From a virus (Duplodnaviria; Heunggongvirae; Uroviricota; Caudoviricetes): a DNA stretch of 44,740 nucleotides. The stretch is taken from positions 1 through 44,740 of IMG/VR virus record IMGVR_UViG_2617271072_000006; one strand, 5' to 3'. Position numbers and translations under genes: made by a program. The notes below the pieces were generated by a model. It worked only from the letters and a program-made list of their open reading frames with translations, had not been told where the DNA came from and did not search any database. How positions within the stretch are numbered: the first letter of the stretch is position 1; the number at the start of each line of letters is the position of its first letter. Below, one piece after another: positions 2,490 through 44,740 of the stretch.

Positions 2490-2685
2490 TTCTGATCCTC
2501 TTCAAAAGGCTACCTGTTACTGGTCGATTTAAGTCAACCTTTACCGCTGATTCGTGGAACAGATACTCTCTTCCATCCTTAACCGGAGGAGGGAATATCC
2601 TGCACTCGCGTACCCATCGACGAACTGTTTCAAGGCTTCTTGGGCGTCGCTGGCGTGCGTTCCACTCCTGAAGTGTCAAGTACAT
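2467..2685 (-). CDS. xis: Excisionase (lambda Xis)
   Basis: 72-aa ORF MYLTLQEWNARQRRPRSLETVRRWVRE..., overlapping int start as in lambda. Confidence 0.95.
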   Translation of the reverse strand: MYLTLQEWNARQRRPRSLETVRRWVRECRIFPPPVKDGREYLFHESAVKVDLNRPVTGSLLKRIRNGKKAKS

Positions 2686-2712
2686 CGCAAAGTCTCCGCA
2701 ATTACACGCAAG

Positions 2713-2732
2713 AAAAAACCGCCATCAGGCGG
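2713..2732 (-). terminator. Rho-independent terminator candidate at 3' end of the small ORF
   Basis: Minus strand reads GCCGCC-TGAT-GGCGG followed by TTTTTT; hairpin overlaps the stop codon. Confidence 0.45.
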
Positions 2733-2892
2733 CTTGGTGTTCTTTCAGTTCTTCAATTCGAATATTGGTTACGTCTGCATGTGCTATCTGCGCCCATATC
2801 ATCCAGTGGTTATAACAGTCGTTGATGTTCTCTGCTTCGATAACCCTGTTGAATGGCTCTCCATTCCATTCACCTGTGACTCGGAAGTGCAT
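2725..2892 (-). CDS. Small hypothetical protein (55 aa) downstream of xis, lambda orf55-like
   Basis: ATG at 2892, TGA at 2725-2727; translation MHFRVTGEWNGEPFNRVIEAENINDCYNHWMIWAQIAHADVTNIRIEELKEHQAA; below the 60-aa cutoff of the ORF track. Confidence 0.55.
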   Translation of the reverse strand: MHFRVTGEWNGEPFNRVIEAENINDCYNHWMIWAQIAHADVTNIRIEELKEHQAA

Positions 2893-2975
2893 TTATCATC
2901 TCCATAAAACAAAACTCGCCGTAGCGAGTTCAGATATAATTTCCACCAAAGGCAGTAGTTGCTTGATGCTAAGAA

Positions 2976-3404
2976 TTATTCAATATCTATTCCTGTAATA
3001 TCTTTTATCTTTTTCCTTGCAAAGCCTTTTGCTAGTGATTTTGAAACACTCATAAGTGTACTAATTCCCTCATCCTTAAAGTTTGTTTTTATAGCTTGCC
3101 AGACATCCTTTTGACGTAAGTCAGCAATAAAATCATGCCCTCTTGCTGTCAACCTCAGTGGTACTTCGATCCAACTATATCCAACACCTTCCCCTAACGC
3201 TTTGGACAATATATGACCGAACCCAGGTTTTCCATCAACCCTGACTATTAATTCGTAGTCACATAATAATCGCATATGGAAAATAAAATCTTGGTCATAT
3301 CTATTAAAGCCATTATCCTCTAGTTCACTAAGCATCGTGTCAGGGCCACGAGTTTTTTCGAATGCGATAAGTAGATCTTTTAGATATTGCTGGTCTAATT
3401 TCAT
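2976..3404 (-). CDS. Hypothetical protein, possibly DUF2513-like winged-helix protein
   Basis: 142-aa ORF with GGAGG Shine-Dalgarno 5 nt upstream of ATG 3404; family assignment is a weak recollection only. Confidence 0.5.
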   Translation of the reverse strand: MKLDQQYLKDLLIAFEKTRGPDTMLSELEDNGFNRYDQDFIFHMRLLCDYELIVRVDGKPGFGHILSKALGEGVGYSWIEVPLRLTARGHDFIADLRQKDVWQAIKTNFKDEGISTLMSVSKSLAKGFARKKIKDITGIDIE

Positions 3405-3432
3405 TGCCGCCTCCGTGACATGTCACAGAGAT

Positions 3433-3771
3433 TTATATCATTAATTTTGTTTCGTGCCAGCCTTTGGTCACCCAGCATTGTGAGTCACCATTACACGGGC
3501 ATGAATTAACAGGAACTCTCTCGCCGCACTTACCGCACCGTTTTCTGCTGATCGATTTTATACGCCAGCGCACACGTGCATCATCCTGGCGGCTCAGTAA
3601 CGCGATGTACTCACCAAACTCGCAAGGCGCACGCCTGAAGCGACGCGTGGCACAGTTACGCTCCAGCATTTCAATTTCCTGAGCATCAAGTACAAGCTCC
3701 AGCTTACGCATACCGGATGATGCTTGCTTGGCTCTCTGATCGGCTTTGTGCTCTGTTGCTGATTTAGCCAT
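3433..3771 (-). CDS. Hypothetical protein with C-terminal Cys-rich zinc-finger-like motif
   Basis: 112-aa ORF; CGKCGERVPVNSCPCNGDSQC cluster; AGGAAAAG upstream of ATG 3771; occupies the lambda ea8.5 position. Confidence 0.5.
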   Translation of the reverse strand: MAKSATEHKADQRAKQASSGMRKLELVLDAQEIEMLERNCATRRFRRAPCEFGEYIALLSRQDDARVRWRIKSISRKRCGKCGERVPVNSCPCNGDSQCWVTKGWHETKLMI

Positions 3772-3964
3772 TCTGCTTTTCCTGCATCAGGAGAAAGACA
3801 ATCATGGCGGCGCGGATACTTCCGGTATCTTTTTACGCGATATTCCCCTTCAATGGCACATACAAGAAGAGAGCCATCAACAGGAGTGATTGAGGAATCG
3901 ACAACCAGCAACGCTTAATTATCTATAGTGTCGTATTTGCTTCATAAAATATGGCGAATAACAC

Positions 3965-3996
3965 AAAGCCCGCAGCAGCTCATTGTGCGGGCTTTT
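3965..3996 (+). terminator. Stem-loop with T-rich tail (terminator candidate) in intergenic region
   Basis: AGCCCGCA ... TGCGGGCT stem, 11-nt loop, followed by TTTTCTTAT on the plus strand. Confidence 0.35.
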
Positions 3997-4064
3997 CTTA
4001 TACCTACTTCCTAGAGATAATTCTATGGAGGCATTAAATCAATACTGTCATTGGTAATATCATA

Positions 4065-4678
4065 TTATCTAAAAGTCTTTCCACTTTTAACATCTAGGTA
4101 TATTCTGTTCGACAACGTCATTCCTCCGCAATATGTGAAATAGATGTTTTCACCCTTATTGCTTGATGCCATCCACCCTCCGATTTCCTTAAAATCGCTT
4201 TCCGTGCAGACCCCTTCATTTATTAACTTCCTAGCTGCCGAAGAAAACTCTTTTTTGTATATACGGTAGTCATCAGATCCTTTGATTAAAGTATCATCTC
4301 CGCTCGCATTTTCAGCAGGATCTGATGGCCTTTCACTGCTAAGATCACTAAGTTTAACCCATTCTGAAAACTTGCCATTAACGATTCCATTTTTTCTTGT
4401 GCAGGATTTATTACCTTCTTTAATATATTCGCTTTCCCCTCCAACACATGAGGCTGAATATGGCTCAGTTATACGAACCCATTCACCTTTTTTTCTAGAA
4501 AATCTACGCCTTCCCTGAAAAATAGTTTCCCAGCCACTCCACATTTACTTGAAGGGCAGGTATGTCTTTCCGTTCGATCAACAACAACCCATAGTTTTGA
4601 TTCATTTTTTGCCATTGCCGATGGTATTTGAGATGAGACAATTAACGTAAGCCCTAAAATTAGTATTGATTTTTTCAT
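4065..4678 (-). CDS. Secreted protein with Sec signal peptide and possible SH3b-like region; frameshifted as assembled
   Basis: ORFs 4469-4678 (signal peptide MKKSILILGLTLIVSSQIPSAMA) and 4065-4544 join into one ~205-aa protein if the T7 run at 4488-4494 were T8. Confidence 0.5.
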
Positions 4679-4976
4679 TGTAATTTCCTTTTACTTTTTA
4701 CAAAGCGTTTAATCATGGCTGATTATCTCTAAGTGTAGTAACAGCCTTGTGCGAAACATGTTACCAAATCGCCATTTCAGTGTATCCGCAGTTAGGCTGC
4801 CACTTCAAGGATTCCTAATTACATGGTACGTAAGCGTAAAATCCCGTTGGTTGGCGGGTAATAACTCTGATCAAATCTCCCTTGTCTTTTGCTCTTACGT
4901 ATGCAGCTCTTGTGTATTCAACCCAGGCCTCCAGTTCAGCAATACGCTTACTTCCATCCGAGATAACACCTTCTAC

Positions 4977-5201
4977 TCACGCTGCTCGTTGAGTTTTGAT
5001 TTTTGCTGTCTCCAGCTCAACACGCAGTTTCCCCACCGTTAGCGCAATATCCTCGTTCTCCTGGTCGCGGCGTTTGATGTATTGCTGGTTTCTTTCCCGT
5101 TCATCCAGCAGTGTCAGCACAATCGATGGTGTTACCAGCTCATGGAAAAAGGTCCGCGTCAAATCCCCAGTTGTCAGGCATTGCCTGCTCTGCCGCTTCA
5201 C
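4977..5201 (-). CDS. Hypothetical coiled-coil-like ORF; doubtful as a stand-alone gene
   Basis: 74-aa ORF with GTG start and no clear RBS; same frame continues with protein-like sequence for 53 codons after an in-frame TGA at 4977-4979. Confidence 0.3.
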   Translation of the reverse strand: MKRQSRQCLTTGDLTRTFFHELVTPSIVLTLLDERERNQQYIKRRDQENEDIALTVGKLRVELETAKIKTQRAA

Positions 5202-5225
5202 GCAGTGCCTGAGAGTGAATTACGC

Positions 5226-5447
5226 TCACTTCGAACCTCTCTGTTTACTGATAAGCTCCAGATCTTCCTGGCAACTTGCACAAGTCCGACAACCCTGAAC
5301 GGCCAGGCGTCTTAGCTCATCTATGGGATCGCCACACTCACAACAATGAGTGGCAGATACAGCCTGGTGGTTCAGGCGGCGCATTTTTATTGCTGTGTTG
5401 CGCTGTAATTCTTCAATTTCTGATGCTGAATCAATGATGTCTGCCAT
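5226..5447 (-). CDS. TraR/DksA-family C4 zinc-finger protein (lambda orf73-like)
   Basis: 73-aa ORF with CCECGDPI...CRTCASCQ four-Cys motif typical of TraR/DksA C-terminal zinc fingers. Confidence 0.7.
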   Translation of the reverse strand: MADIIDSASEIEELQRNTAIKMRRLNHQAVSATHCCECGDPIDELRRLAVQGCRTCASCQEDLELISKQRGSK

Positions 5448-5838
5448 CTTCCATTAATCCCTGAATTGTTGGTTAATACGCTTGGGGGTAAATGCGAGCA
5501 ATAAAAAAGGAGCCTGTAGCTCCCTGATAATTTTGCTTTTCATGTTCATCGTTCCTTAAAGACGCCGTTTAACATGCCGATTGCCAGGCTTAAATGAGTC
5601 GGTGTGAATCCCATCAGCGTTACCGTTTCGCGGTGCTTCTTCAGTACGCTACGGCAAATGTCATCGACGTTTTTATCCGGAAACTGCTGTCTGGCTTTTT
5701 TGATTTCAGAATTAGCCTGACGGGCAATGCTGCGAAGGGCGTTTTTCTTGCTGAGGTGTCATTGAACAAGCCCCATGTCGGCAAGCATAAGCACACAGAA
5801 TATGAAGCCCGCTGCCAGAAAAATGCATTCAGTGGTTG

Positions 5839-8432: not shown

Positions 8433-8496
8433 GCTGCGGATCTAAGCGGTCATCGCAACGGTGAAGTTATAAATTTTTGTGATACCAACATCGATG

Positions 8497-8816: not shown

Positions 8817-10419
8817 TTAATTTATCTTTTCAACATTTCCATGAATCAACAAGTCGTAGGCAAGAAATAGTTTCCTATACTGGGTTTTTAAATTGTCAAC
8901 GTCGCATGCCTTGAATTGAACAAACGCTTCTTTTTTAACATAATCTTCAATCTCCTCTTTGGGGATATTTTTTATGTTCTTAATGACTATAGACAATTCT
9001 TTGTACTTTTTGAACTTTGCATCCTTTATATCTTTGATGTTGGTGTAAATTTTATTTGCATTGATTTTATCTAAGGTGATTTTATTGAGCAAGTCGTCTA
9101 GTTTTCCGTGGCGTTCAATGCGTTGATTTAGTTTTAACACATATTTAGCTGGCAAACTTAACTCTTTCAAATTACATGAGGTTATAGTTTTTGAAAATGG
9201 AAGTTGTAATGAGTTTACTGAACCTAATATGAAATCTATGGCTAATTTATTAGATATTTCATTTTTATTAAATAAGTAGTCTTCAAGATAATTTATTTCT
9301 TTAACTTGTGTGAATACATACTTTTTATCGCCTAGAGCAACAACTAAATTTTTTCCTTGTTTAACACTTTCTTCAAGTCTGTCTAAGTCAGAAGGTGAAA
9401 CCAATAGAGTATCTAAGTGCCCTTTTTCACCCTCATTAATGATAAGTGTTTTAATGGCTCTTTGATACCTTAAAACATCATAAGGTGAGAGCCCTTCATC
9501 AACAGCACTGATCTCATCATAGATCTGTTTATAGTTATCTGTTTTAACAGATGTATATGTAATTTGTAGCTGTTGATCGGTAATCTGTTTTGGTACTACT
9601 TCCTGTTCATTCTCTTTATATTCAATCAAAATTATTCTTTCAGCTGATTTTCGACCATCTTCTCTAGGTAGTTGTGAGGAAAAATCAGAAAGAAGTTTCT
9701 TTACATTCCTGTCAGTTAAAGAATATCCAAGAAAAACTATTGGATTTTTAATCATGTTAGATAGTATCTTGGCACTAATGAGTATAGATTTGTTGTCATA
9801 TTTTTCGTAATCATCTTTATTTATGATTATTGAGTGTGGATCCTTTATATCACCATGTATTTTGTATAACTCACTCCAGCCAATAGTATCTTCGAAAAAA
9901 CCATTATTTCCAATATAGAGTTTTGGAGTTATATTTTGCTCTTGAAGTAAATTTTCTATGAAAGCATCATAATTTGTAGTGATGATTATCTTGGCCTTTT
10001 TTATTAATGTTTTAAATGATGCTAATTCATCAAGATTTACATCCTTTCTGATTGTGTTATTAGAAAATCTTTGGCATATGGCGTATTTAAATGGTGAAAT
10101 ATCTTCACTAAAAACCCTCTTGGCATCTAGTCCATTTAATTTTAATTTGCCAGTCCTAAACAATAGATTGTAATCATTTTCAATTTTACTTGCTGCCTCT
10201 GTATAAATCTTATGATCGATATCATTATCACTGTTATTTTTATGTGATTCTTTTATTGTTAAAAGATAACTATAGAAATCATTTGTGGGATTTGTTATTT
10301 TCCAATACTCGTTTAATAGCTCTTCCCACGTTGGGTAGTTCTCTAAATATATTTTTGAAATGCCTGAGCCAATAAAGACTATTGGGTAATTTTTGAATTC
10401 AAAATTTTTTTTTTGACAT
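8817..10419 (-). CDS. SIR2-like (SIR2_2/ThsA-type NADase domain) protein with uncharacterised C-terminal region; N-terminus frameshifted as assembled
   Basis: ORF 8817-10163 carries IIITTNYD, YKIHG and VFLGYSLTD motifs; the same frame upstream encodes the FIGSGIS glycine loop but has no start codon; ATG at 10419 with RBS is out of frame by one base across a T10 run (10405-10414). Confidence 0.7.
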
Positions 10420-21662: not shown

Positions 21663-21723
21663 GGGGCGGGTCAAATCCCTGTGACCTGACGTCTTCCGGA
21701 CTGCCCGCCCCATCCGTTTTTTT
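21663..21723 (+). terminator. Large GC-rich inverted repeat followed by T7 tract between HNH and terS (terminator or cos-proximal structure)
   Basis: GGGGCGGG (21663-21670) pairs with CCCGCCCC (21704-21711); TTTTTTT at 21717-21723. Confidence 0.4.
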
Positions 21724-21762
21724 ATACCCGCGAAAAATGAAATTTAACCAGGAGTGCCACAT

Positions 21763-22257
21763 ATGGCTGGAACGGCGGGGCGTTCCGGGCGTCGCCCCAA
21801 GCCAACGGCGCGCAAGGCGCTGGCCGGAAACCCCGGCAAGCGAGCCCTGAACAAAGATGAACCTGTTTTTACGCCCATCAAAGGTGTTGAGCCACCGGAG
21901 TGGTTCGCTGAAGAAGATCTCCCTCTCGCCACGATCATGTGGCAACTGACAACCAAAGAACTCTGCGGTCAGGGCCTGCTGTGCGTGACTGACTTGGCGG
22001 TACTTGAGCGGTGGTGCGTGGCCTACGAGTTCTGGCGACGTGCCGTGAAAAATATTGCCAGACAGGGCAACACCATCACCGGTGCAATGGGTGGCATGGT
22101 CAAAAATCCGGAGCTGACCGCCAAGAAAGAACAGGAGTCCGAGATGAGCAGCACGGGGGCAATGCTCGGACTCGACCCCAGCAGCCGCCAGCGTCTGATT
22201 GGCCTGGCGGGGCAGAAGAAAGCCACTAACCCGTTTCTGAAAATCATCGAATCATGA
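21763..22257 (+). CDS. Terminase small subunit
   Basis: ORF 21754-22257 (likely ATG 21763 after AGGAG), positioned between HNH and the large terminase subunit with ATGA overlap. Confidence 0.8.
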
Positions 22258-23986
22258 GCCGGAAATCTTACCCCAACGTAAATGCTGCCAATCAGTATGC
22301 CCGTGATGTCGTGCGCGGAAAGATTGTGGCCTGCCAGTTTGTGATTCAGGCCTGCCAGCGCCATCTTGATGACCTGATGGTGGAAAAAGTAAGTCGTTTC
22401 GTTACCGCTTCGACAAGGACCTGGCTGAACGGGCCGCGAAATTTATTCAGCTGTTGCCACACACCAAGGGGGAGTGGGCATTCAAGAGGATGCCCATCAC
22501 GCTGGAACCGTGGCAGCTCTTTGTGATCTGCTGTGCGTTTGGCTGGGTCAATAAAGGCTCCCGGCTGCGCCGCTTCAGGGAGGTGTATACCGAAATCCCC
22601 CGTAAGAACGGCAAATCGGCAATCTCTGCCGGTGTTGCCCTGTATTGTTTTGCCTGTGATAACGAGTTTGGCGCGGAAGTGTATTCCGGTGCCACGACAG
22701 AGAAACAGGCGTGGGAAGTCTTTCGCCCGGCGCGACTGATGTGTAAACGCACACCCATGCTGACGGAAGCGTTCGGGATTGAGGTTAACGCCTCAAACAT
22801 GAACCGTCCGGAGGATGGCGCGCGGTTTGAACCGCTGATCGGTAACCCCGGTGATGGTTCATCACCCCACTGTGCCGTGGTGGATGAATATCACGAGCAC
22901 GCCACCGATGCGCTTTATACCACGATGCTTACCGGGATGGGCGCGCGACGTCAGCCACTGATGTGGGCCATCACCACCGCCGGGTACAACATTGAGGGGC
23001 CGTGCTACGACAAGCGGCGGGAAGTTATCGAGATGCTCAACGGTTCGGTACCCAACGATGAACTGTTCGGGATCATCTATACCGTTGACGAAGGCGATGA
23101 CTGGACCGACCCGCAGGTGCTGGAAAAAGCTAACCCGAATATTGGCGTGTCGGTTTATCGCGAATTTTTGTTAAGTCAGCAGCAGCGTGCGAAAAATAAC
23201 GCCCGTCTGGCAAACGTCTTTAAAACAAAACACCTCAATATCTGGGTGTCGGCGCGTTCGGCGTATTTCAACCTGGTGAGCTGGCAGAGCTGCGAGGATA
23301 AATCACTGACCCTTGAGCAGTTCGAGGGGCAACCGTGCATTCTGGCCTTTGACCTGGCGCGTAAGCTGGATATGAACAGCATGGCGCGACTTTATACCCG
23401 CGAGATTGACGGTAAAACGCATTACTACAGTGTGGCTCCGCGCTTCTGGGTACCGTATGACACGGTGTACAGCGTCGAGAAAAATGAAGATCGCCGGACA
23501 GCCGAACGCTTTCAGAAATGGGTGGAAATGGGCGTTCTGACCGTTACCGATGGTGCGGAGGTGGATTATCGCTACATCCTCGAGGAGGCCAAAGCGGCGA
23601 ACAAAATCAGCCCGGTCAGTGAGTCACCCATCGACCCCTTCGGGGCGACCGGGTTGTCACATGACCTTGCTGATGAAGACCTGAATCCCGTCACTATCAT
23701 TCAGAACTACACCAACATGTCCGACCCGATGAAAGAGCTGGAAGCGGCAATTGAATCGGGGCGCTTTCATCATGATGGCAATCCCATCATGACCTGGTGT
23801 ATCGGCAATGTGGTCGGCAAAACCATTCCGGGTAACGATGATGTGGTGAAACCCGTCAAAGAGCAGGCGGAAAACAAAATTGACGGTGCAGTTGCGCTGA
23901 TTATGGCGGTTGGCAGAGCCATGCTGTATGAGAAAGAAGACACGCTGTCTGACCACATTGAGTCCTATGGGATCCGCTCGCTTTAA
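22254..23986 (+). CDS. Terminase large subunit; frameshifted as assembled
   Basis: N-terminal ORF 22254-22526 and main ORF 22454-23986 join in frame if one base is restored near 22397-22401; reading of the junction ([19 protein letters not shown]) is my reconstruction. Confidence 0.85.
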
Positions 23987-23997
23987 CTGAGGTAATT

Positions 23998-24180
23998 ATG
24001 ATCATGCTGATTCTCGCGCCTCTGGTGGGCGTGCTGGGGGCGCTTTTGCTGGCGTATGGTGCCTGGCTGATTTATCCCCCGGCGGGGTTTGTTGTTGCCG
24101 GGGCGTTGTGCCTGTTCTGGTCGTGGCTGGTGGCGCGATATCTCGACCGTACACAGTCGTCTGTCGGCGGAGGTAAATAG
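23998..24180 (+). CDS. Small hydrophobic membrane protein
   Basis: 60-aa ORF, two predicted transmembrane helices, between terminase and portal. Confidence 0.5.
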
Positions 24181-25421
24181 TGTTCTTTTCGGGATTATTT
24201 CAACGAAAAAGTGACGCACCGGTGACCACGCCAGCAGAGCTGGCGGATGCTATCGGGTTGTCCTACGACACCTATACCGGAAAGCAGATCAGCAGCCAGC
24301 GGGCCATGCGACTGACGGCGGTTTTTTCCTGCGTCAGGGTGCTGGCAGAGTCGGTCGGGATGTTGCCCTGCAATCTGTATCACCTGAACGGCAGCCTGAA
24401 ACAGAGAGCCACCGGCGAGCGTCTGCATAAGCTGATCTCCACGCATCCCAATGGCTATATGACGCCGCAGGAGTTCTGGGAGCTGGTGGTCACCTGTCTG
24501 TGCCTGCGGGGAAACTTTTACGCCTACAAAGTGAAAGCATTTGGCGAAGTGGCTGAACTGCTGCCCGTCGATCCCGGCTGTGTGGTACCGAAGCTTAACA
24601 GTAGCTGGGAGCCGGTCTATCAGGTCACATTCCCGGACGGCTCCACGGATGTACTGAGCCAGGAAGATATCTGGCATGTGCGCACGCTGACGCTGGACGG
24701 TCTGGTGGGGCTGAATCCCATCGCCTATGCCCGCGAGGCAATATCGCTGGCAGCTGCGACCGAAGAGCACGGGGCCAGACTGTTCAGCAATGGTGCGGTG
24801 ACGTCCGGTGTGTTGCGTACAGAGCAGACGCTGTCGGATCAGGCTTATGAGCGCCTGAAGAAAGATTTTGAGGAGCGTCACACCGGGCTTGGCAATGCTC
24901 ACCGCCCGATGATCCTTGAGATGGGGCTGGACTGGAAGTCGATGGCGCTGAACGCCGAGGACAGCCAGTTCCTGGAAACCCGCAAGTTTCAGCTTGAAGA
25001 AATCTGTCGTCTGTTCCGGGTGCCGTTGCACATGGTGCAGAACACCGATCGCGCCACCTTCAACAATATCGAAGAGCTGGGGCTGGGATTTATCAACTAT
25101 TCACTGGTGCCGTATCTGACCCGCATCGAACAGCGGATCAACACCGGACTGGTACGAAAAAGTAAGCAGGGCGTTTATTACGCCAAATTTAACGCCGGGG
25201 CGTTACTGCGCGGGGATATGAAGTCCCGTTTTGAAGCCTACGCCACCGGGATCAACTGGGGAATTTACTCTCCCAATGACTGCCGCGACCTGGAAGATAT
25301 GAATCCGCGTCCCGGTGGTGATGTCTATCTCACACCGATGAACATGACCACGAAACCCTCCGATGGCAGTAAAGCCGGTAAGCAGAAGGATAACGCCAAT
25401 GCAGACGAAACAACGTCTTGA
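24180..25421 (+). CDS. Portal protein (HK97 family)
   Basis: 413-aa ORF, GTG start with GGAGG RBS; size and position (after terminase, before prohead protease) typical of HK97-type portals. Confidence 0.8.
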   Translation: MFFSGLFQRKSDAPVTTPAELADAIGLSYDTYTGKQISSQRAMRLTAVFSCVRVLAESVGMLPCNLYHLNGSLKQRATGERLHKLISTHPNGYMTPQEFWELVVTCLCLRGNFYAYKVKAFGEVAELLPVDPGCVVPKLNSSWEPVYQVTFPDGSTDVLSQEDIWHVRTLTLDGLVGLNPIAYAREAISLAAATEEHGARLFSNGAVTSGVLRTEQTLSDQAYERLKKDFEERHTGLGNAHRPMILEMGLDWKSMALNAEDSQFLETRKFQLEEICRLFRVPLHMVQNTDRATFNNIEELGLGFINYSLVPYLTRIEQRINTGLVRKSKQGVYYAKFNAGALLRGDMKSRFEAYATGINWGIYSPNDCRDLEDMNPRPGGDVYLTPMNMTTKPSDGSKAGKQKDNANADETTS

Positions 25422-26050
25422 TGTACCGCTGAGTCTGAAATCTGTCAGTGACTCCGGTGAGTTTGAAGGGTATGGCTCCGTCTTTGGTGTAAAGGACAGC
25501 CACGATGATGTGGTGATGTCCGGGGCATTTGCTGCTTCCCTGCGGGCGTGGAGTGACAGAAAAGCGTTACCTGCGCTGCTCTGGCAGCACCGCATGGATG
25601 AACCCATCGGTGTTTACACCGAAATGAAGGAAGACGATGTCGGGCTTTACGTCAGGGGACGGTTGCTTATTGATGATGATCCCCTCGCAAAAACGCGCAC
25701 ATGCACACATGAAGGCCGGTTCGTTAACCGGCCTTTCTATTGGGTACGTCCTGAAAGACTGGGAATACGACCGGAGCAAAGAAGCCTTTCTGCTGAAAGA
25801 AATCGACCTCTGGGAAGTCAGCCTGGTGACGTTCCCGTCTAACGACGAGGCGCGGATCAGCGACGTCAAGAACGCACTGGCCCGCGGGGAAATCCCCGAA
25901 CAGAAAAAAATCGAAAGAGTCCTGCGTGATGTCGGACTCTCCCGTACCCAGGCCAAAGCATTCATGGCCGGGGGCTATGGCGCACTGTCCCTGCGCGACG
26001 CTGAGGATGTGGGCTCTGCACTGAATGCACTGAAAAATCTGAACTTCTAA
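25399..26050 (+). CDS. Prohead protease (HK97 family); frameshifted as assembled
   Basis: ORFs 25363-25842 and 25637-26050 are two frames of one protease; frames differ by one base around the C4/A5 runs at 25681-25693; start may be 25363 or ATG 25399. Confidence 0.75.
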
Positions 26051-26064
26051 TCAGGAGAAATACG

Positions 26065-27267
26065 ATGGCGGTTGATATTAAAGATGTCGAACAGGTCGCG
26101 CAGGAGCTGCAGCAGAAGTTTGACGACTTCAAAGCAAAGAACGACAAGCGCGTGGATGCGATTGAGCAGGAAAAAGGCAAGCTTGCCGGGCAGGTGGAAA
26201 CCCTGAACGGGAAACTCAGCGAGCTGGAAAATCTCAAAAGCGACCTTGAAAAAGAGCTGCTTGAGCTGAAACGTCCGGCAGGTGGAGCGCAAAATAAACT
26301 GGCCACCGAGCATAAAGAGGCGTTTGTGGGCTTCCTGCGTAAAGGCCGTGAAGACGGTCTGCGCGATCTGGAGCGTAAGGCATTGCAGGTGGGTACCGAT
26401 GAAGACGGTGCTACGCCGTGCCGGAAGAACTGGATCGCAACATTCTTAACCTGCTGAAAGATGAAGTGGTGATGCGTCAGGAACCACGGTGATCACCGTT
26501 GGCGGTTCCGACTACAAAAACTGGTGAATCTGGGCGGTACGGCTTCCGGATGGGTGGGGGAAACGGATACGCGATCCCAGACTGCCACCTCCAGACTGGA
26601 GCTGATTGAACCTCTCATGGGGGAAATCTACGGCAACCCGCAGGCTACCCAGAAAATGCTGGACGATGCCTTCTTCAACGTGGAGGCCTGGATCAACAGC
26701 GAGCTGGCAACCGAATTTGCCGAACAGGAAGAAATTGCCTTTACCTCAGGCAATGGCACCAAGAAGCCGAAAGGGTTCCTGGCGTATGAATCCACGGATG
26801 AAACCGACAAGGTCCGGGCGTTCGGCAAACTTCAGCATATTGTATCCGGCGAAGCGACCGCGGTGACCGCAGACGCCATTATCAAACTGATTTACACGCT
26901 GCGTAAGGCACACCGCACTGGCGCGAAGTTCATGATGAACAACAACAGCCTGTTTGCCATACGTCTGCTGAAAGACAGCGAGGGTAACTATCTGTGGCGT
27001 CCGGGGCTGGAGCTGGGGCAGCCGTCCTCTCTGGCGGGTTACGGTATCGCTGAAAACGAACAGATGCCGGATATCGCCGCTGATGCGAAAGCCATTGCAT
27101 TTGGTAACTTCAAACGGGGTTACACCATCGTTGACCGTATCGGCACCCGCATTCTGCGTGACCCGTACACCAATAAACCGTTTGTCGGTTTTTATACCAC
27201 CAAACGCACCGGCGGCATGCTGGTCGATTCGCAGGCCATCAAACTGCTGAAGATTGCAGTGGCGTAA
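26065..27267 (+). CDS. Major capsid protein (HK97 fold) with N-terminal coiled-coil delta domain; three frameshifts as assembled
   Basis: ORF 26065-26457 (coiled coil) and 26524-27267 (capsid body) are connected through three single-base deletions at ~26410, ~26482 and 26516-26520. Confidence 0.8.
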
Positions 27268-27315
27268 TCACTCAGGGGCGCGGAACCGCGCCCCTGTTCT
27301 GACGGGTGAAGAATC

Positions 27316-27516
27316 ATGATCCTGAAACAAGATCTGAAATGGTCACCGGACGGTATGCGTGTTGAGGTCATTCGGGCCGGTGAGTATGACGACGGGGCGC
27401 TTCCTGCCCGGGTGCAGGAGATTGCACTTCAGGCCGGGTTAGCAGAGCGCGGAACCAGTGCAAAAAGCAATAAAGCGACAAAAGAGAAAAAAGCCACGAC
27501 CAGTAAAGAGGGCTGA
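27316..27516 (+). CDS. Hypothetical head-module protein
   Basis: 66-aa ORF between capsid and connector genes. Confidence 0.4.
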   Translation: MILKQDLKWSPDGMRVEVIRAGEYDDGALPARVQEIALQAGLAERGTSAKSNKATKEKKATTSKEG

Positions 27517-27518
27517 GT

Positions 27519-27842
27519 ATGCTTCTGACAATGGAAGAGATTAAAGCCCAACTCCGGCTGGATGAGGATTTCGATGCTGATGACCGCCATCTGCAACTGC
27601 TGGCCTGTGCGGCACAAAAGCGGACAGAAACGTATCTGAACCGGAAGCTCTATGCACCGGATGAAACCATTCCGGACAGCGATCCGGACGGGCTGCACCT
27701 GCCGGATGATATTCGTCTGGGGATGCTGATGCTTATCAGCCATTTTTACGAAAACCGCTCGTCGGTTACGGAAGTGGAGAAACTCGACATGCCGCAGAGT
27801 TTTGGCTGGCTTGTCGGCCCGTACAGGTACTTTCCGCAATGA
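27519..27842 (+). CDS. Head-tail connector (gp6-like)
   Basis: 107-aa ORF in the conserved position after the capsid gene. Confidence 0.65.
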   Translation: MLLTMEEIKAQLRLDEDFDADDRHLQLLACAAQKRTETYLNRKLYAPDETIPDSDPDGLHLPDDIRLGMLMLISHFYENRSSVTEVEKLDMPQSFGWLVGPYRYFPQ

Positions 27843-28249
27843 AAATTCGTCAGGCGCAGACCAGCGCAACCTACATTCTGCCGGACCCCGGTGAACTGAA
27901 TAAACGCGTCCTGATCCGCCAGCGGGTGGATATGCCCGCGGATAACTTTGGCGTGGAGCCTCAATACCCGGTTACGTTCCGGACATGGGCGAAGGTTATC
28001 CAGACCAGTGCCACCACCTGGCAGGAAACCGCGCAGACCGGGGACGCCATCACCCATTACATCACCATTCGCTACCGCCGGGGGATCACTGCTGATTATG
28101 AGGTGGTCTGTGATGACCGTGTGTACCGGGTGAAACGTCAGCGTGATCTGAACGGGGCGCGGCGCTTTCTGCTGCTGGAGTGTACGGAACTGGGTGCCGA
28201 AGAACAAATGGGAGGACGCAGTGGATCAGACAGCATTTTTACACGTTGA
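27839..28249 (+). CDS. Head closure / head-tail adaptor protein
   Basis: 136-aa ORF, overlapping neighbours, conserved order in HK97-type head modules. Confidence 0.6.
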   Translation: MKIRQAQTSATYILPDPGELNKRVLIRQRVDMPADNFGVEPQYPVTFRTWAKVIQTSATTWQETAQTGDAITHYITIRYRRGITADYEVVCDDRVYRVKRQRDLNGARRFLLLECTELGAEEQMGGRSGSDSIFTR

Positions 28250-28745
28250 TTTCAAACAACCGGAGGAGATGGAGTTTAACCGTGCCAGGCTCCGAAGGGC
28301 ATTTGTTCAAATCGGGCGTGTCTATATGCGTGATGCCCGGCGGCTGGTGATGCGACGTGGTCGGTCTGCTCCAGGTGAAAACCCCGGCTATCAGACCGGA
28401 CGACTTGCGCGTTCTATAGGTTATTACGTCCCCCGTAAAAGCTCCCGTCGTTCTGGCCTGATGGTCAGGATTTCCCCTAACCAGAAAAACGGGCAGGGTA
28501 ACCGGCGTTTTCCTGAAGGTTCTGCGTATTATCCGGCGTTTCTGTATTACGGTGTGCGTCATGCCGCATACGGGATGAGCAAAAAGGATAAGCGCCAGAA
28601 AAAGCAGCATTCATCCCGCTGGCGGCTGGCACCACGTAATAACTTTATGGCTGATGTCATCGACCAGCGTCGTTACTGGACACAAAAGTTACTGTCCCGT
28701 GAGTTACAGCGGTCATTACGTCCTGTAAGAAGGAAAAAAACATGA
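28194..28745 (+). CDS. HK97 gp10-like neck protein
   Basis: 183-aa Arg-rich ORF following the head closure gene. Confidence 0.55.
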   Translation: MPKNKWEDAVDQTAFLHVDFKQPEEMEFNRARLRRAFVQIGRVYMRDARRLVMRRGRSAPGENPGYQTGRLARSIGYYVPRKSSRRSGLMVRISPNQKNGQGNRRFPEGSAYYPAFLYYGVRHAAYGMSKKDKRQKKQHSSRWRLAPRNNFMADVIDQRRYWTQKLLSRELQRSLRPVRRKKT

Positions 28746-29302
28746 AACTGACTCCTGTTATTGCTGCGCTGCGTGCCCGCTGTCTGTATTTTGAAAACCG
28801 GGTGGCAGGCGCGGCACAGTTCAAAAATCTGCCGGAGGTCGGAAAGCTGAGACTCCCGGCGGCATATGTTGTACCGGGTGATGATTCTCCGGGAGAAAAC
28901 AAAAGCCAGACCGACTACTGGCAGGAGCTGAAAGAGGGCTTCTCCGTGGTTGTCATACTGAGTAACGGGCGTGATGAGCGCGGTCAGTTTGCCTCGTATG
29001 ATGTGGTGGACGATGTCCGGCAAATGCTCTTTAAGGCCCTGCTGGGCTGGAACCTGGAAGCGTGCGGTAATCCGATTACCTATGACGGTGGCACGCTGCT
29101 GGATCTGAATCGTCATGAGCTGATTTATCAGTTCGATTTTTCGGTCATCAGCGAGCTGACCGAAGACGATACCCGCCAGCAGGATGATCTGAACAGTCTG
29201 GATGAACTGCGAACGCTGGCGATTGATGTTGATTATCTCGATCCCGGTAACGGGCCTGACGGCGATATCGAACATCACACCGAAATAACCCTTCCTTCCT
29301 GA
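28742..29302 (+). CDS. Tail completion / terminator-like protein
   Basis: 186-aa ORF between neck genes and tail sheath. Confidence 0.5.
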   Translation: MKLTPVIAALRARCLYFENRVAGAAQFKNLPEVGKLRLPAAYVVPGDDSPGENKSQTDYWQELKEGFSVVVILSNGRDERGQFASYDVVDDVRQMLFKALLGWNLEACGNPITYDGGTLLDLNRHELIYQFDFSVISELTEDDTRQQDDLNSLDELRTLAIDVDYLDPGNGPDGDIEHHTEITLPS

Positions 29303-29464
29303 GAATCTTCATGTTTGTGAAACCTGTTAAAGGGCGGTCAGTTCCTGACCCTGCCCGCGGCGACCTTTTGCCCGCCGAGGGGCGAAATGTTGATGAGAAC
29401 AACTACTGGCTGCGCCGTGAAGCAGCGGGTGATATCCGGCGCGTGAATGAAAAGGTGAATACCG

Positions 29465-30960
29465 ATGACGATAAGCTTTAACTCCATTCCGTCGAATACG
29501 CTGGTTCCGATTTTTATGCGGAAATGGATAACTCGGCGGCGAATACTGCACAGGACAGCGGAGCATCGCTGCTGATTGGTCATGCCAATAACGGTGCAGA
29601 GATTGTTGCCAACAGTCTGGTGCTGATGCCATCGGCAGACTATGCACGCCAGATTTGTGGTGCGGGAAGTCAGTTGTCGCGTATGGTCGAGGCTTATCGC
29701 CAGACCGACCCGTTTGGTGAACTGTATGTGATTGCCGTTCCTGAATCCACGGGCGCGGCGGCAACAGTTACGCTGACGGTGACCGGAGCGGCAACCGAAA
29801 CCGGCACGGTGAATGTTTATGTGGGACGTACCCGCGTGCAGGCACCGGTGACCAACGGCGATAACGTCGCGACGATTGCCAGCAGTATCAAAGATGCCAT
29901 CAATGCCGTTCCGACCCTGCCGTTTACTGCCTCATCTTCGGCAGGCGTGATCACACTGACCGCGCGTCATAAGGGGCTTTGCGGGAATGAAATTCCTGTC
30001 AGCCTCAATTACTACGGCTTTGGTGGGGGCGAAGTGCTGCCAGCGGGCGTACAGATTGCCGTGGCGACGGGTACCGCTGGAACGGGCGCTCCTGTTCTCA
30101 CCGGCGCGGTGGCTGCAATGGCGGATGAGCCGTTTGATTATATCGGCCTGCCGTTCAACGACACGGCCTCCGTTAACACGCTGGTGACCGAGATGAACGA
30201 TACCAGCGGTCGCTGGAGCTATGCGCGTCAGCTGTATGGTCATGTGTATACGGCAAAGATCGGCACGCTGTCAGAACTGGTGACCGCAGGTGACCAGTTT
30301 AACCAGCAGCACATTACCCTGGAGGGATACGAAAAAGAGACCCCGACGCCTGCCGACGAGCTGGCGGCAAGCCGTACCGCCCGCGCAGCAGTGTTTATTC
30401 GCAACGATCCGGCACGTCCCACGCAGACCGGTGAGCTGGTGGGTATGCTGCCTGCGCCGAAGGGGAAACGGTTCACGATGACCGAACAACAGACCCTGCT
30501 GTCGCATGGCGTGGCAACGGCGTATGTCGAAAGCGGGGTGCTGCGCATTCAGCGTGATGTCACCACGTACAGGAAAAATGCTTACGGTGTTGCGGATAAC
30601 AGCTACCTCGACAGCGAGACGCTGCATACCAGCGCGTATGTGCTGCGCAAACTGAAATCCGTCATTACCAGTAAGTACGGGCGTCACAAGCTTGCCAGCG
30701 ACGGTACCCGCTTTGGTCCCGGTCAGGCGATTGTCACACCGGCGGTGATCAAAGGGGAACTGCTGACAACCTACCGTCAGCTTGAGCGTGCGGGGATCGT
30801 GGAAAACTACGAACTGTTTAAGCAGTACCTGGTTGTGGAGCGTGATGCCAGCGATCCGAACCGCCTGAACACGCTGTTCCCGCCTGACTATGTTAACCAG
30901 TTGCGTGTCTTTGCCGTGGTTAACCAGTTCCGTCTTCAGTATTCAGAGGAGTCTGCATAA
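29465..30960 (+). CDS. Contractile tail sheath protein (Mu gpL-like); N-terminus frameshifted as assembled
   Basis: ORF 29524-30960 (478 aa) extends to ATG 29465 (MTISFNSIPSNTLVPIFYAE-MDNSAAN) if the T5 run at 29511-29515 were T6; followed by a tube gene. Confidence 0.8.
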
Positions 30961-31316
30961 TGGCCCGTATCGGGGGAACCTGTTATTTCAAAATTGACGG
31001 TCAACAGCTATCGCTGACCGGCGGCATTGAGGTGCCCATGAACAGGACGGTCAATGATGACATCATCGGCCTGGACGGTTCAGTGGACCGCAAGGAAACT
31101 CACCGTGCGCCTTATGTCAAAGGGACTTTCAAGGTACCGAAGAATTTTCCGGTGAGCAAAATCACCTCGTCTGATGAGATGACCATCACTGCCGAGCTGG
31201 CGAACGGTCAGGTCTATGTATTGTCGTCTGCCTGGCTGCACGGTGAAGCGAACCATAATGCCGAAGAAGGCACGGTCGATATTGAATTTCACGGTGAAGA
31301 AGGGGATTACCAGTGA
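30960..31316 (+). CDS. Tail tube protein
   Basis: 118-aa ORF immediately after the sheath gene with ATGA overlap. Confidence 0.75.
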   Translation: MARIGGTCYFKIDGQQLSLTGGIEVPMNRTVNDDIIGLDGSVDRKETHRAPYVKGTFKVPKNFPVSKITSSDEMTITAELANGQVYVLSSAWLHGEANHNAEEGTVDIEFHGEEGDYQ

Positions 31317-31636
31317 TTGAGCTTGTACTTAAAAAACCGATCATCGCCCACAAAGAAACACTGCATGTGTTGGAAATACGTGAGCCTACGTATGACGAGA
31401 TTGAGGCGCTGGGGTTCCCTTTCTCTGTTTCGCCTGATGGTGGTATGAAAATGGACAGTCAGGTGGCGCTGAAATATATCCCGCTTCTGGCCGGGATCCC
31501 GCGCTCGTCTGCAGCGCAGATGACGAAGCTGGATATTTTCAAGGCAGGCATGATTGTAATGCGTTTTTTTACCGGCTTGGAGACGGAAGAGACCTCCGGA
31601 AGCGATTCTACAATGTCGCGTGGTTCTGGAAATTAA
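31313..31636 (+). CDS. Tail assembly chaperone
   Basis: 107-aa ORF between tube and tape-measure genes. Confidence 0.55.
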   Translation: MIELVLKKPIIAHKETLHVLEIREPTYDEIEALGFPFSVSPDGGMKMDSQVALKYIPLLAGIPRSSAAQMTKLDIFKAGMIVMRFFTGLETEETSGSDSTMSRGSGN

Positions 31637-31720
31637 ACCCCCTTGAACTTCGCCGGACGGCTATTTCTCACTTTGCTGATCTGGAGGCAGAGGCCGTCCG
31701 TATAAATGAGGAGATGAAGC

Positions 31721-33628
31721 ATGGCTGATAATTTTCAGCTGAAAGCCATCATCACCGCCGTTGACAGGCTATCCGGCCCGCTTAAAGGTATGCAGCGTCA
31801 GCTTAAGGGATTTCAGAAAGAAGTCTCCAGCCTTGCTCTGGGCGCTGCCGGGGCTGGTACTGCAATAATGGGGGCACTGGCACTCCCTGTAAAATCAGCC
31901 ATCACCCTTGAATCGAAGATGGCTGATGTCCGCAAAGTGGTGGACGGTCTGGATACGCCGGATGCATTTAAGGCCATGACGGAGCAGGTACGCGCTTTGT
32001 CTACAGAGCTTCCCATGTCTGCAGACGGGATCGCGGAAATTGTGGCGGCTGGCGGTCAGGCCGGGATTGCACGTGATGAACTGATGCAGTTTGCCACTGA
32101 TGCGGTGAAGATGGGCGTGGCCTTTGATACAACGGCTGAAGAGTCCGGGCAGATGATGGCCCAGTGGCGTACTGCGTTTAATATGACACAGGATGAAGTG
32201 GCTGGGCTGGCTGACAAAATCAACTACCTTGGTAATACCGGCCCGGCGAATGCGAAGAAAATCTCCGATATTGTTACGCGTATTGGTCCTTTAGGTGGTG
32301 TTGCTGGTGTGGCTTCCGGCGAAATCGCGGCGATGGGGGCAACCATTGCCGGGATGGGCGTGGAGTCAGAAATTGCCGCCACAGGGATCAAGAACTTCAT
32401 GCTTTCCCTGACCGCGGGAAATTCCGCGACAAAATCGCAGAAACAGGCATTGCGTTTTCTGCGGATCAATCCGAAGAAATTAGCTACTGATATGCAGAAA
32501 GATGCCCGGGGCACCATGCTGTCTGTACTGGATGCGATGGCTAAAGTGCCTAAAGAAAAACAGGCAGCTGTGCTGAATGCCCTGTTCGGGAAAGAGTCTC
32601 TGGGCGCGATAGCACCTCTGCTGACTAACCTTGATTTGTTGCGTACCAACTTCAGGCGGGTTGCGGATTCCCAGCAATATGGCAGTTCGATGCAGAAGGA
32701 ATATGCTTCGAGGGCAGCGACGACGGAAAACCAGCTTTTACTTCTGCAAAATCAACTTGATGCCATTTCTTCCACGCTGGGGGAAACGTTTCTTCCTGAG
32801 GTTAATGATGGTCTTGAAGCGGTAAAACCGCTCCTTGAGGAAGTGAGAACGTTTTGTCCGTGAAAACCCGGAGCTCGTTAAGACCATTGCTAAAATCGGT
32901 CTGGCCTTACTGACGGTGGGAGCCGCTGCAGGCTCTTTGTCCAGAATTATGAAAGTTCTCGGCGGTGTGATGAATATGACGCCTGCTAAGGGGCTGATTG
33001 CTCTTCTGGTTGGTGGCGCTTACCTCATTATTGATAACTGGGAAACCGTAGGTCCTGTCATAAAAAGTCTGGCACGTGGTGGATGAAACGGCGCAGGCGA
33101 TGGGGGGGATGGGAAACTGTTCTGAAAGCGATTGCCCTGTTTATGGCAACCAAATGGGTTGCTGACGTTACCAAATCCATTACCGCAGTGACCAGAGAGA
33201 TGCGTACGCTGGGGAAGGTATCGGCAGAAACGGGATTGATGGGGAAAGGCCGCGGCTTTATCGGGAAGGCCGGGGTATATGGTTTTCTGGGAACCCTGAT
33301 ATATGAGCCGGTTAAAGATACTCTGGAAAGTGTTGTTCCTGAAGATACGGTTAACTGGCTGGATAATAAAGGGCTGTTTCTGGCTTCAGACTGGACGCCT
33401 TTTTTTGATCGTAAAGAGTACGAGCAGTATCAGGCCAGCCTGAGTCAGTACAAACCCAATGTTCCGCTGTTGAATCCATCTTCTTCCATGACACAGCACA
33501 GCGAGCTGAAAGTCACGTTCGAGAATGCTCCGCCAGGTATGAAGATAATTGATGTACCGGGAAAAGCCGATCCCCTGATGAAAATCACGCACGATGTGGG
33601 GTATTCCCCTTTTCGTTTTCCACGATAA
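31721..33628 (+). CDS. Tail tape measure protein; two frameshifts as assembled
   Basis: ORF 31721-32863 and 33083-33628 are linked by an open frame 32856-33086 (VRENPELVKTIAKIGLALLTVGAAAG...); frame changes at the T4 run 32852-32855 and near 33071-33083. Confidence 0.8.
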
Positions 33629-33652: not shown

Positions 33653-35029
33653 ATGGATTTATCCTCATTTCCCACCCGACCTTCATTACTTTCGTCGTCT
33701 TCAGGCTGGCGTGACAGGCTTCAGGACGCGTCATTTCGCGGCGTGCCGTTTAAGGTTGAAGAAGAAAGTGCGGGAACCGGTCGCCGTGTGGAAACACATG
33801 AATACCCGAACCGCGACAAGCCCTATACCGAAGATCTGGGAAAAGTCACTTTCCGCCCGTCCATCACAGCTTATGTGGTGGGAGATGACTGCTTTGACCA
33901 GCGCGATCGCCTGATTGAAGCGCTGAATAAACCCGGTCCCGGCACGCTTGTCCACCCGACATATGGTGAGCTGAAAGTCTGTGTTGACGGGGAAGTTCGG
34001 GTCAGCACATCGAAAAGTGAAGGGCGTATTGTCCGCTTTGACCTGAAGTTTGTCGAAGCAGGAGAACTCTCTTACCCCACATCAGGTGCGGCGACGGCGC
34101 AGACGCTGATGTCATCCTGTTCTGCACTGGATGACTGCATTAGTGACAGCTTCAGCGGTTTCAGTATCGATGGTGTGGCGGATTTCGTGCAGAACGACGT
34201 TATCGGTAATGCCAGCATAATGCTGGGGTATGTTTCTGATGCGATGAAAGTGGTGGATTCTGCCGTATCGGATGCCGCCAGGCTGTTGCAGGGGGATATC
34301 TCGGTACTTCTGCCGCCGCCATCGTCAGGCAAAAATTTCGTTGAGCAGGTGCAGAAAATGTGGCGTACCGGGAAACGCCTTTATGGTAACGCCAGCGACC
34401 TGGTTACCATGATCAAAACGCTTTCCGGTGTCAGCCTCGGCAGCGATCTGCAACCGCGCGGCGTCTGGAAAACGGACAGTAAAACCACCGCCACGGCGAC
34501 GCAGCAGCGTAACGTGGTTGCCAGCACCCTTCGTACGACCGCAATCAGCGAAGTGGCGTATGCCGTCACCCGATTGCCTGCGCCAACAACTTCCGCGGTG
34601 ATGCAGAATTCCGCAGTGGGGCAGGCAACAACACCCGCGCAGAGCACTGGCTGGCCTTCCGTCACGCATCCGGCACTGAACAATGCACCGGCGGTGAAAA
34701 ACACGGTTGACCTGCCGACGTGGGAAGAACTGACTGACATTCGCGACACACTGAATACGGCAATTGATAAGGAGTTGTCCCGTACAACCAGTGATGCGCT
34801 GTTTCTGGCGCTGCGCCGGGTGAAAGCAGATCTGAATGCGGATATCAACACGCGCCTTGAACAGTCTGCACGGATCATTCAGCGCACACCGGATGAGGTT
34901 TTACCCGCGCTGGTGCTGGCGGCGACCTGGTTTGATAACGCGGCGCGTGACGCGGACATTATCCGGCGTAATGCCATTACGCATCCCGGCTTTGTGCCGG
35001 TGATCCCTCTGAAGGTGCCAGTGCAATGA
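33653..35029 (+). CDS. Mu gpN-like DNA circularisation / tail protein
   Basis: 458-aa ORF with DRLQDASFRGVPFKVEEE N-terminal motif; position between tape measure and baseplate hub. Confidence 0.7.
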   Translation: MDLSSFPTRPSLLSSSSGWRDRLQDASFRGVPFKVEEESAGTGRRVETHEYPNRDKPYTEDLGKVTFRPSITAYVVGDDCFDQRDRLIEALNKPGPGTLVHPTYGELKVCVDGEVRVSTSKSEGRIVRFDLKFVEAGELSYPTSGAATAQTLMSSCSALDDCISDSFSGFSIDGVADFVQNDVIGNASIMLGYVSDAMKVVDSAVSDAARLLQGDISVLLPPPSSGKNFVEQVQKMWRTGKRLYGNASDLVTMIKTLSGVSLGSDLQPRGVWKTDSKTTATATQQRNVVASTLRTTAISEVAYAVTRLPAPTTSAVMQNSAVGQATTPAQSTGWPSVTHPALNNAPAVKNTVDLPTWEELTDIRDTLNTAIDKELSRTTSDALFLALRRVKADLNADINTRLEQSARIIQRTPDEVLPALVLAATWFDNAARDADIIRRNAITHPGFVPVIPLKVPVQ

Positions 35030-38698: not shown

Positions 38699-38701
38699 TC
38701 C

Positions 38702-41036: not shown

Positions 41037-41039
41037 GGA

Positions 41040-44710: not shown

Positions 44711-44740
44711 TGCACTGGCACCTTCAGAGGGATCACCGGC
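44707..44740 (-). CDS. 3' end of gpN-like gene of the second module (partial, runs off window)
   Basis: Minus-strand sequence mirrors the gpN/gpP overlap of copy 1 (..VIPLKVPVQ stop overlapping ATG). Confidence 0.5.
   Translation of the reverse strand, partial: PVIPLKVPVQ

Follow-up and report, generated by a model that had tools for sequence, protein, structure and literature searches.

A mosaic block of accessory genes in the xis-exo arm of a lambdoid Escherichia coli prophage and its predicted exported SH3b protein

In this study, which was based on a viral DNA stretch of 44,740 nucleotides (IMG/VR record IMGVR_UViG_2617271072_000006, here called the window), three minus-strand genes at positions 2976-4678 were analysed. 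The interval, which lies in the xis-exo arm of a lambdoid prophage, is likely to be a patchwork that recombination assembled from unrelated accessory modules, in which a predicted exported envelope binder stands next to a fragment of an epsilon15-like early operon with a candidate operator, and in which the relics of two other genes would mark the recombination joints. The block is accessory cargo of an ordinary kind in a lambda-like prophage that is common in E. coli, and its small novelties are an unnamed C-terminal domain family in the exported protein and a conserved palindrome.

Prophage setting and composition of the block

The window opens with ybhC (1-1284), which is followed by a lambda-type integrase (1419-2489) and an excisionase (2467-2685). 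Between xis and the three-gene block lies a conserved 55-aa lambdoid ORF (2725-2892, minus strand; PHROG match to phrog_676) that is also found in lambda, and the DNA at this end matches lambda at 96.7%. The far side of the block carries an Ead/Ea22-like relic, a TraR/DksA gene, exo, bet and gam. With these genes, the window is recognised as a prophage of the lambdoid type that occupies the lambda attachment site, and the block lies in its non-essential xis-exo arm. The three ORFs sit on the minus strand where the original prediction had placed them and, as it stated, each has its own ribosome-binding site (the Shine-Dalgarno-like GGAGG, AGGA and AAGGA, 5-8 nt before each ATG). It had further proposed that these genes replace ea8.5 and ea22 of lambda; non-core cargo does occupy this arm, but ea22 was not lost in full, as its relic persists beside the block at 4977-5201 (minus strand; PF13935, E 4.4e-15; a RefSeq pseudogene).

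A second relic, which is humD/umuD'-like, lies within the block at 3804-3911 on the minus strand (NCBIfam HumD, E 2.4e-14; a UmuD-like phrog; a RefSeq partial pseudogene). Its first 23 residues are 87% identical to P1 HumD, a UmuD' homologue, but in contrast to P1 only an internal fragment survives here and not a gene. This relic and the palindrome at 3415-3426 that is described below had both been overlooked in the original prediction. The GC content changes in steps along the block, from 36% through 50% to 38%, compared with 50.5% for the window. The idea of three cargo genes stands in the sense that they are accessory and non-core, but not in the sense of a single cargo unit, because the block is a mosaic of three parts: the low-GC exported-protein gene, the humD and ea22 relics, and the pair of the 112-aa and DUF2513 genes, which recurs in epsilon15-like Cronobacter prophages. 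In such a mosaic, the capture of the early-operon fragment would have truncated a resident humD-like gene.

Several features of the block resemble those of morons, a concept reportedly introduced by Hendrix and colleagues. A terminator-like hairpin with a T tract was returned by a scan 3' of the DUF2513 gene (2912-2931, minus strand; 8-bp stem, tail TGTTTTATGG), and a G+C-rich hairpin, AGCCCGCA...TGCGGGCT, lies directly 3' of the exported-protein gene at 3967-3993, with T-rich tails on both strands; the latter was read by eye from the sequence, and its plus-strand version was also returned by the terminator scan. Moreover, the GC content of two of the genes is 36-38% against 50.5%, and the insertion is flanked by the lambda-like 55-aa ORF on one side and the Ea22 relic on the other. 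As in the morons of the lambdoid ea arm (the ea8.5/ea22 region of lambda), non-essential genes of deviant base composition are found between conserved early-left genes, with a terminator-like hairpin 3' of a gene and mosaic joints. Unlike them, the block has no detected promoter of its own, and part of it comes from the early operon of another phage and is thus not a moron of the classic kind. A crude scan of 2600-5500 found no sigma-70-like promoter on the coding (minus) strand, for which reason expression in the lysogen is not indicated, and promoter scans of the window together with the homologous Pseudomonas and Aeromonas loci were uninformative. Additionally, there was no LexA box (CTGT-N8-ACAG) in 2900-5000 and no Rfam RNA family in 2600-5400, and none of the three proteins matched the PADLOC defence HMMs at E <= 0.1, nor did two relic or flanking ORFs.

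The predicted exported SH3b protein

The gene at 4065-4678 (minus strand), when read in its intact form, encodes a protein of 204 aa with a predicted signal peptide, an SH3b domain, an unnamed C-terminal domain of about 85 aa and six conserved cysteines. As read from the sequence, its N-terminus, MKKSILILGLTLIVSSQIPSAMA/KN, resembles a Sec signal peptide in its n/h/c arrangement and AxA site, with the basic n-region MKK, the hydrophobic h-region SILILGLTLIVSS and the cleavage motif QIPSAMA/K. In an alignment of 45 homologues, signal peptides were found again, in some cases replaced by lipoboxes or by a zinc ribbon with a transmembrane anchor. Export, which had been predicted from the signal peptide of the window protein, is thus also predicted from features found across its homologues. 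Cysteines 41, 46, 78, 93, 158 and 184 are nearly invariant in the same alignment and, together with the export signals, fit an oxidised extracytoplasmic protein. A large protein collection held 83 clusters of homologues, most of them exactly 204 aa long and 45-69% identical, which came from E. coli, E. fergusonii, Pseudomonas, Aeromonas and metagenomes.

The SH3-like character proposed for this protein was confirmed from its structure model. The AlphaFold2 model had a pLDDT of 90.5 with a disordered leader; it contains the SH3b beta-barrel, and fold searches against the PDB and BFVD matched SH3b domains only (e.g., PDB 9ovi). The SH3_3 HMM (PF08239) scored 16.2 bits on the window protein, which is below its gathering score of 27, while several homologues do pass it in the precomputed Pfam assignments. 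Residues of about 118-204 form two helices and a three-stranded sheet with no structural match, and Pfam has no model for this part. A profile search with it retrieved 533 representative clusters, 402 of them at E <= 1e-10, in which the domain was C-terminal in every case; it was found alone behind a signal peptide (in proteins of about 100 aa), duplicated, or after SH3b, in the last case with or without N-terminal ankyrin repeats or a zinc-ribbon-transmembrane anchor. Residues of about 118-204 are an unnamed domain of a predicted extracytoplasmic type. Matches of the same profile to de novo TIM barrels were rejected as spurious sums over a repeated helix, and nothing real was returned when the PDB was searched by sequence with individual proteins and with profiles from each of the three families of the block.

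SH3b domains are familiar as cell-wall-binding modules of endolysins, lysostaphin and NlpC/P60 proteins. Here, however, the SH3b domain comes without a catalytic one and is paired with the unnamed C-terminal domain, the host is Gram-negative, the predicted location is the periplasm and the HMM score is below the threshold. The ligands of SH3b domains in the Gram-negative periplasm are not established. The gene product would be a Sec-exported and probably disulphide-bonded periplasmic protein, and our best guess is that it serves as a non-enzymatic binder of peptidoglycan or another periplasmic envelope ligand that is carried as cargo by many mobile elements.

The genomic contexts of the homologues are in line with the latter. 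The Pseudomonas copies lie directly 3' of a tyrosine integrase in small islands, whose neighbouring genes had no PHROG or PADLOC function save a weak regulator match, and the Aeromonas copy is cargo of a prophage late region. One metagenome contig has the homologue amid IS elements, two others have it between S24/UmuD-like and UmuC-like genes, and in two further genomes UmuC or S24 fragments lie just upstream. An ordinary chromosomal context, adjoining pheST, was seen in one case. Everywhere the GC content of the gene is lower than that of its surroundings (38% compared with 50.5% here; 48-50% compared with 54-59% in Pseudomonas). Because of the low GC content, the terminator-like hairpin after the gene and the homologues in unrelated mobile elements, a role as mobile cargo is supported by these sequence comparisons.

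The original prediction had suggested that a secreted prophage protein might be a lysogenic-conversion or envelope-modifying factor, which is a guess without support beyond export and cargo status. It is conceivable, though rather doubtful, that the lysogen produces the SH3b protein and that it works from the periplasm in lysogenic conversion or superinfection exclusion. Shielding of the peptidoglycan or a block of the tail lysozyme or DNA entry of incoming phages would be examples. The Sec signal with a cysteine pattern of the periplasmic type, a fold typical of cell-wall-binding modules, the cargo positions of the gene in several prophages and islands, and its moron-like low GC content and hairpin all agree with such a function. 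On the other hand, the gene had no detectable promoter and its product no PADLOC match, no paper mentioning the protein was found in the literature, some homologues occupy ordinary chromosomal settings such as the one beside pheST, and the fold searches matched no known exclusion protein. T4 Spackle and other periplasmic exclusion proteins are likewise small, phage-encoded and periplasmic with a signal peptide, but no search revealed any similarity of sequence or fold, so that the analogy is positional and conceptual only. If the envelope were indeed altered or phages excluded, a widespread E. coli prophage block would have a phenotype worth knowing.

The 112-aa protein, the palindrome and the DUF2513 gene

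The gene at 3433-3771 (minus strand) encodes a 112-aa protein with a ribbon-helix-helix (RHH)-like N-terminal half and a cysteine cluster, which belongs to the family of epsilon15 gp49 and phiV10 gp55. It matched phrog_536, annotated as a transcriptional regulator, at E 7e-48 and no Pfam family; its homologues form at least 394 clusters with the length fixed at 112 aa. The CxxC...CxC cluster noted in the original prediction was borne out by a 29-member alignment, in which C79, C82, C91, C93, C99 and H106 are invariant (C79-x2-C82...C91-x-C93...C99). This arrangement is that of a putative zinc ribbon or zinc finger, with four conserved Cys/His ligands in CxxC-type knuckles. The only NCBIfam match was a sub-threshold one to YbfE (NF008671; E 0.0068, 16.8 bits compared with a cut-off of 62). 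The AlphaFold2 model was poor (pLDDT 52.7) and gave, at this low confidence, a beta-alpha-alpha arrangement with a strand at 25-26 and helices at 30-42 and 52-62; the profile of the family had no match in the PDB. The weak N-terminal similarity and the predicted beta-alpha-alpha order would fit RHH proteins of the YbfE/CopG type, but the C-terminal cysteine cluster is absent from YbfE-type proteins, and the score is far under the cut-off. We found no characterised member of the epsilon15 gp49 family, and lxr of P1 was rejected as a relative, as it is a 190-aa protein adjoining humD and not of the 112-aa family.

The 112-aa gene shares about 90% DNA identity with its counterparts in epsilon15-like podophages, e.g., phiV10 gp55 and TL-2011b gp20, and the proteins epsilon15 gp49, phiV10 gp55 and TL-2011b gp20 are about 86-90% identical to that of the window, with the same palindrome at the gene end. 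In phages of the epsilon15 type the gene is the last early one before terS, whereas here it lies in a lambdoid ea arm and is followed by DUF2513. In TL-2011b terS follows it immediately, as it does in phiV10 once the two record ends are joined. Among 143 scorable IMG/VR loci, terS was the next gene in 92 and DUF2513 only in 21, all of this lambdoid lineage.

A perfect 12-bp palindrome, GTGACATGTCAC, occupies 3415-3426, between the stop codon of the 112-aa gene and the ribosome-binding site of the DUF2513 gene, and is a candidate operator. It occurs once in the window, where 0.07 copies would be expected by chance. In 69 of 72 and in 63 of 75 IMG/VR loci, two sets that partly overlap, the 112-aa gene has the palindrome at, over or after its stop codon, and past the palindrome the sequence diverges at once into more than ten contexts. 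It is also present in TL-2011b and in Cronobacter prophages. Two more perfect copies were found in phiV10, after terL and after the last structural gene, and one more in TL-2011b, after ant; all of these additional copies are intergenic and beside terminators, which gives two to three copies per epsilon15-like genome. We infer that the 112-aa protein may be a dimeric DNA-binding regulator, for which the palindrome would be the operator. A site for another protein, a terminator-associated element or a recombination element are alternative roles for such a palindrome. The literature search found no paper with the GTGACATGTCAC string. Should the 112-aa protein bind it, this would offer a first handle on the control of the junction between the early and packaging genes in epsilon15-like phages.

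The third gene (2976-3404, minus strand; 142 aa, 36% GC) encodes a probable winged-helix protein. Its assignment as DUF2513-like held, as residues 2-115 aligned with positions 1-100 of PF10711 at 42.5 bits, compared with a gathering score of 29.6 (E 8.6e-11), and the protein matched phrog_585 at E 2.3e-34. Homologues form 99 clusters across the Enterobacterales, 97 of which carry PF10711. No paper on DUF2513 or on the RefSeq accessions of the block was found in the literature; a paper on ZX5 was set aside, as its subject is the repressor, antirepressor and integrase and it does not cover the protein sought, as was one on svsR, which concerns another prophage locus.

The simplest reading of these comparisons is that a lambdoid block captured the end of an epsilon15-like early operon. 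The stretch 2976-3771 would then be an end fragment of the early operon of an epsilon15-like podophage, composed of a 112-aa protein of DNA-binding type, the palindrome and a DUF2513 protein of winged-helix type. In Cronobacter epsilon15-like prophages, a homologue of the 112-aa protein (62.5% identity) is followed by 27 nt with the same palindrome, a DUF2513 gene and then terS. The pair has regulator-like features and is not an obvious conversion factor. That the two genes keep a spacer of 27-28 nt with the palindrome in two distant phage lineages would also be expected if they formed one functional cassette with it, either an addiction or defence pair or a regulator and its effector. This is improbable, because in most cases the two genes are found apart: in 122 of the 143 loci, terS or another gene comes after the 112-aa gene, and the DUF2513 genes of Serratia and Citrobacter have other neighbours. 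Moreover, the GC content of the two genes is unequal (50% for the 112-aa gene and 36% for DUF2513), and there was no PADLOC match.

A broader reading joins the 112-aa protein and palindrome, as a regulator-operator unit, with the exported SH3b protein as a mobile periplasmic factor with a new domain family. The first would act at the ends of epsilon15-like operons, i.e., at the early-to-terminase junction, and would have been transplanted here before a DUF2513 gene. The second, which carries the domain family of 533 clusters without a Pfam model and itself recurs beside integrases and umuD/umuC-like genes, might guard the envelope against phage or bacteriocin attack. We consider it unlikely that this combination is correct as a whole.

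The T7 run and the copies of the block in other genomes

The original prediction had noted a frameshift of the exported-protein gene at a T7 run. Both the run (4488-4494; A7 on the coding strand) and the resulting split into ORFs of 69 aa (4469-4678, minus strand) and 159 aa (4065-4544, minus strand) are present in the window, but they are private to it and thus not a property of the gene. Nearly all other copies examined have T8, one base more. With one T inserted, an ORF of 204 codons is recovered that differs at no other base from the gene for WP_000748282.1; in a reference genome that is 100% identical over 2700-5000 save this site, the run is T8 and the 615-bp CDS for this protein is intact. 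When an 80-nt sequence spanning the run was used as a probe, it matched 131 complete E. coli genomes with no ungapped match, and all 60 matches listed span 81 nt, i.e., one base more than the probe. Among 25 loci the run length was eight in 23, nine in one and seven in the window alone, and T7 was absent from the 131 complete genomes, the phage Chlobot and 19 IMG/VR loci.

The window has at least 17 other indels of the homopolymer type, by which cI, the major capsid, the terminase and other genes are broken. Comparison of its first 14 kb with near-identical complete genomes revealed seven homopolymer indels of one base, by which a conserved 71-aa ORF and the 5' end of a SIR2 gene are broken and the cI-like repressor is cut into pieces of 63 and 175 aa. 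Over 21.4 kb at 99.9% identity, there were 10 gap openings compared with 10 substitutions, and the gaps hit terL, the prohead protease, the major capsid (three times), the tail sheath and the tape measure. Because the ratio of indels to substitutions is one, the indels are concentrated in runs and essential genes are hit, which is the signature of homopolymer-prone sequencing, the break at T7 is very likely to be an assembly or sequencing artefact and not biology of the gene. In a mutator strain that is deficient in mismatch repair, real homopolymer indels are conceivable in principle.

It is highly improbable that the A7 run is meaningful, as a slipped-strand on/off switch or as a site of -1 ribosomal frameshifting. 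The A7 allele does contain an in-frame X XXY YYZ heptamer of the dnaX type (frame 0, GA-A AAA AAG), from which a -1 slip would give exactly the full-length protein, run lengths of 7, 8 and 9 occur among the 25 loci, and a hairpin 3' of the run has a folding energy of -17.2 kcal/mol (z -2.9). However, the hairpin abuts the heptamer with zero spacer, the run of seven is missing from all 131 complete genomes, and similar indels occur throughout the window, including in essential genes. The need for a frameshift is also not conserved, as the other copies are in frame with A8 and the homologues are single ORFs of about 204 aa. As every other copy is in frame, the heptamer is a curiosity and not a mechanism. 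The practical value of these observations is mainly negative: the frameshift is not to be interpreted, and with homopolymer indels throughout the window every pseudogene call made from it is to be tempered.

The humD and ea22 relics at the block and the IS insertions in some genomes might suggest decaying junk with no current function, but this is scarcely credible given that about 130 genomes have all three ORFs in intact form and that each of the three families has kept invariant residues and a fixed length across genera. At least 130 complete E. coli genomes, including that of the laboratory strain ATCC 8739, carry an identical block with the intact 615-bp CDS; 130 of 5,426 corresponds to about 2.4%. 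The block is also carried by the isolated phage Chlobot, and its genes are annotated as hypothetical proteins in the roughly 130 complete genomes and in this one phage.

Genomic neighbourhoods of the exported SH3b gene

In two metagenome contigs, L189 (4019-6411) and L190 (4760-7152), a homologue of the 204-aa exported SH3b protein was found to be encoded between S24/UmuD-like and UmuC-like genes, with gaps of 44 nt and 9 nt around it. Fragments of UmuC or S24 also lie directly upstream of the homologue in two genomes (loci L232 and L254), and the window gene itself (4065-4678, minus strand) adjoins the humD relic (3804-3911, minus strand). It is possible that this family is recurrently associated with SOS mutagenesis operons. 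In the Pseudomonas loci (L006, L010-L012, L191, L193 and L194), a tyrosine integrase is immediately followed by the exported-protein gene in a small island of approximately 5 kb; the four to five other proteins of these islands had no match in Pfam, PHROG or PADLOC apart from a weak PHROG match to a regulator.

The SIR2-family gene of the immunity region

For a SIR2-family gene (8817-10163, minus strand, with its true start near 10418), the PADLOC search gave a match to PDC-S25, a candidate defence family (E 2e-194), and a weak one to ThsA. The gene, whose GC content is very low (27-34%), is flanked by the kil/gam side and by the cI-like repressor and occupies the place of the lambda immunity-region cargo.

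The palindrome in epsilon15-like genomes

The palindrome GTGACATGTCAC (window 3415-3426), of which no mention was found in the literature searched, is present in two to three copies per epsilon15-like genome; copies lie at 2262 and 19493 in phiV10, at 11500 and 32282 in TL-2011b and at 8252 in locus L018. All of these copies are intergenic, being located at operon ends and adjoining rho-independent terminators, and in phiV10 they flank the terS-terL pair.

Homopolymer indels and the inverted repeat

A comparison with 99.9%-identical complete genomes revealed at least 17 further homopolymer-type indels in the window, nearly all of +/-1, at 8474, 10405, 11080 and many sites across 21714-33102. 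They cut the cI-like repressor into 63 + 175 aa and split the SIR2 gene, terL and the prohead protease, major capsid (at three sites), tail sheath and tape measure genes. A conserved 71-aa lambdoid ORF (5546-5762, minus strand; WP_000188870.1 in relatives) is likewise disrupted by a T4-to-T5 change at 5742. This pattern is characteristic of sequencing errors in homopolymer runs, and pseudogene calls in the window are therefore unreliable. The window also contains a 4-kb inverted repeat (34996-39006 and 40732-44740; 97.8% identity), whose copies face each other across approximately 1.7 kb and carry baseplate/tail-fibre genes; these could be two tail-to-tail tail modules, an inversion region or a misassembly.
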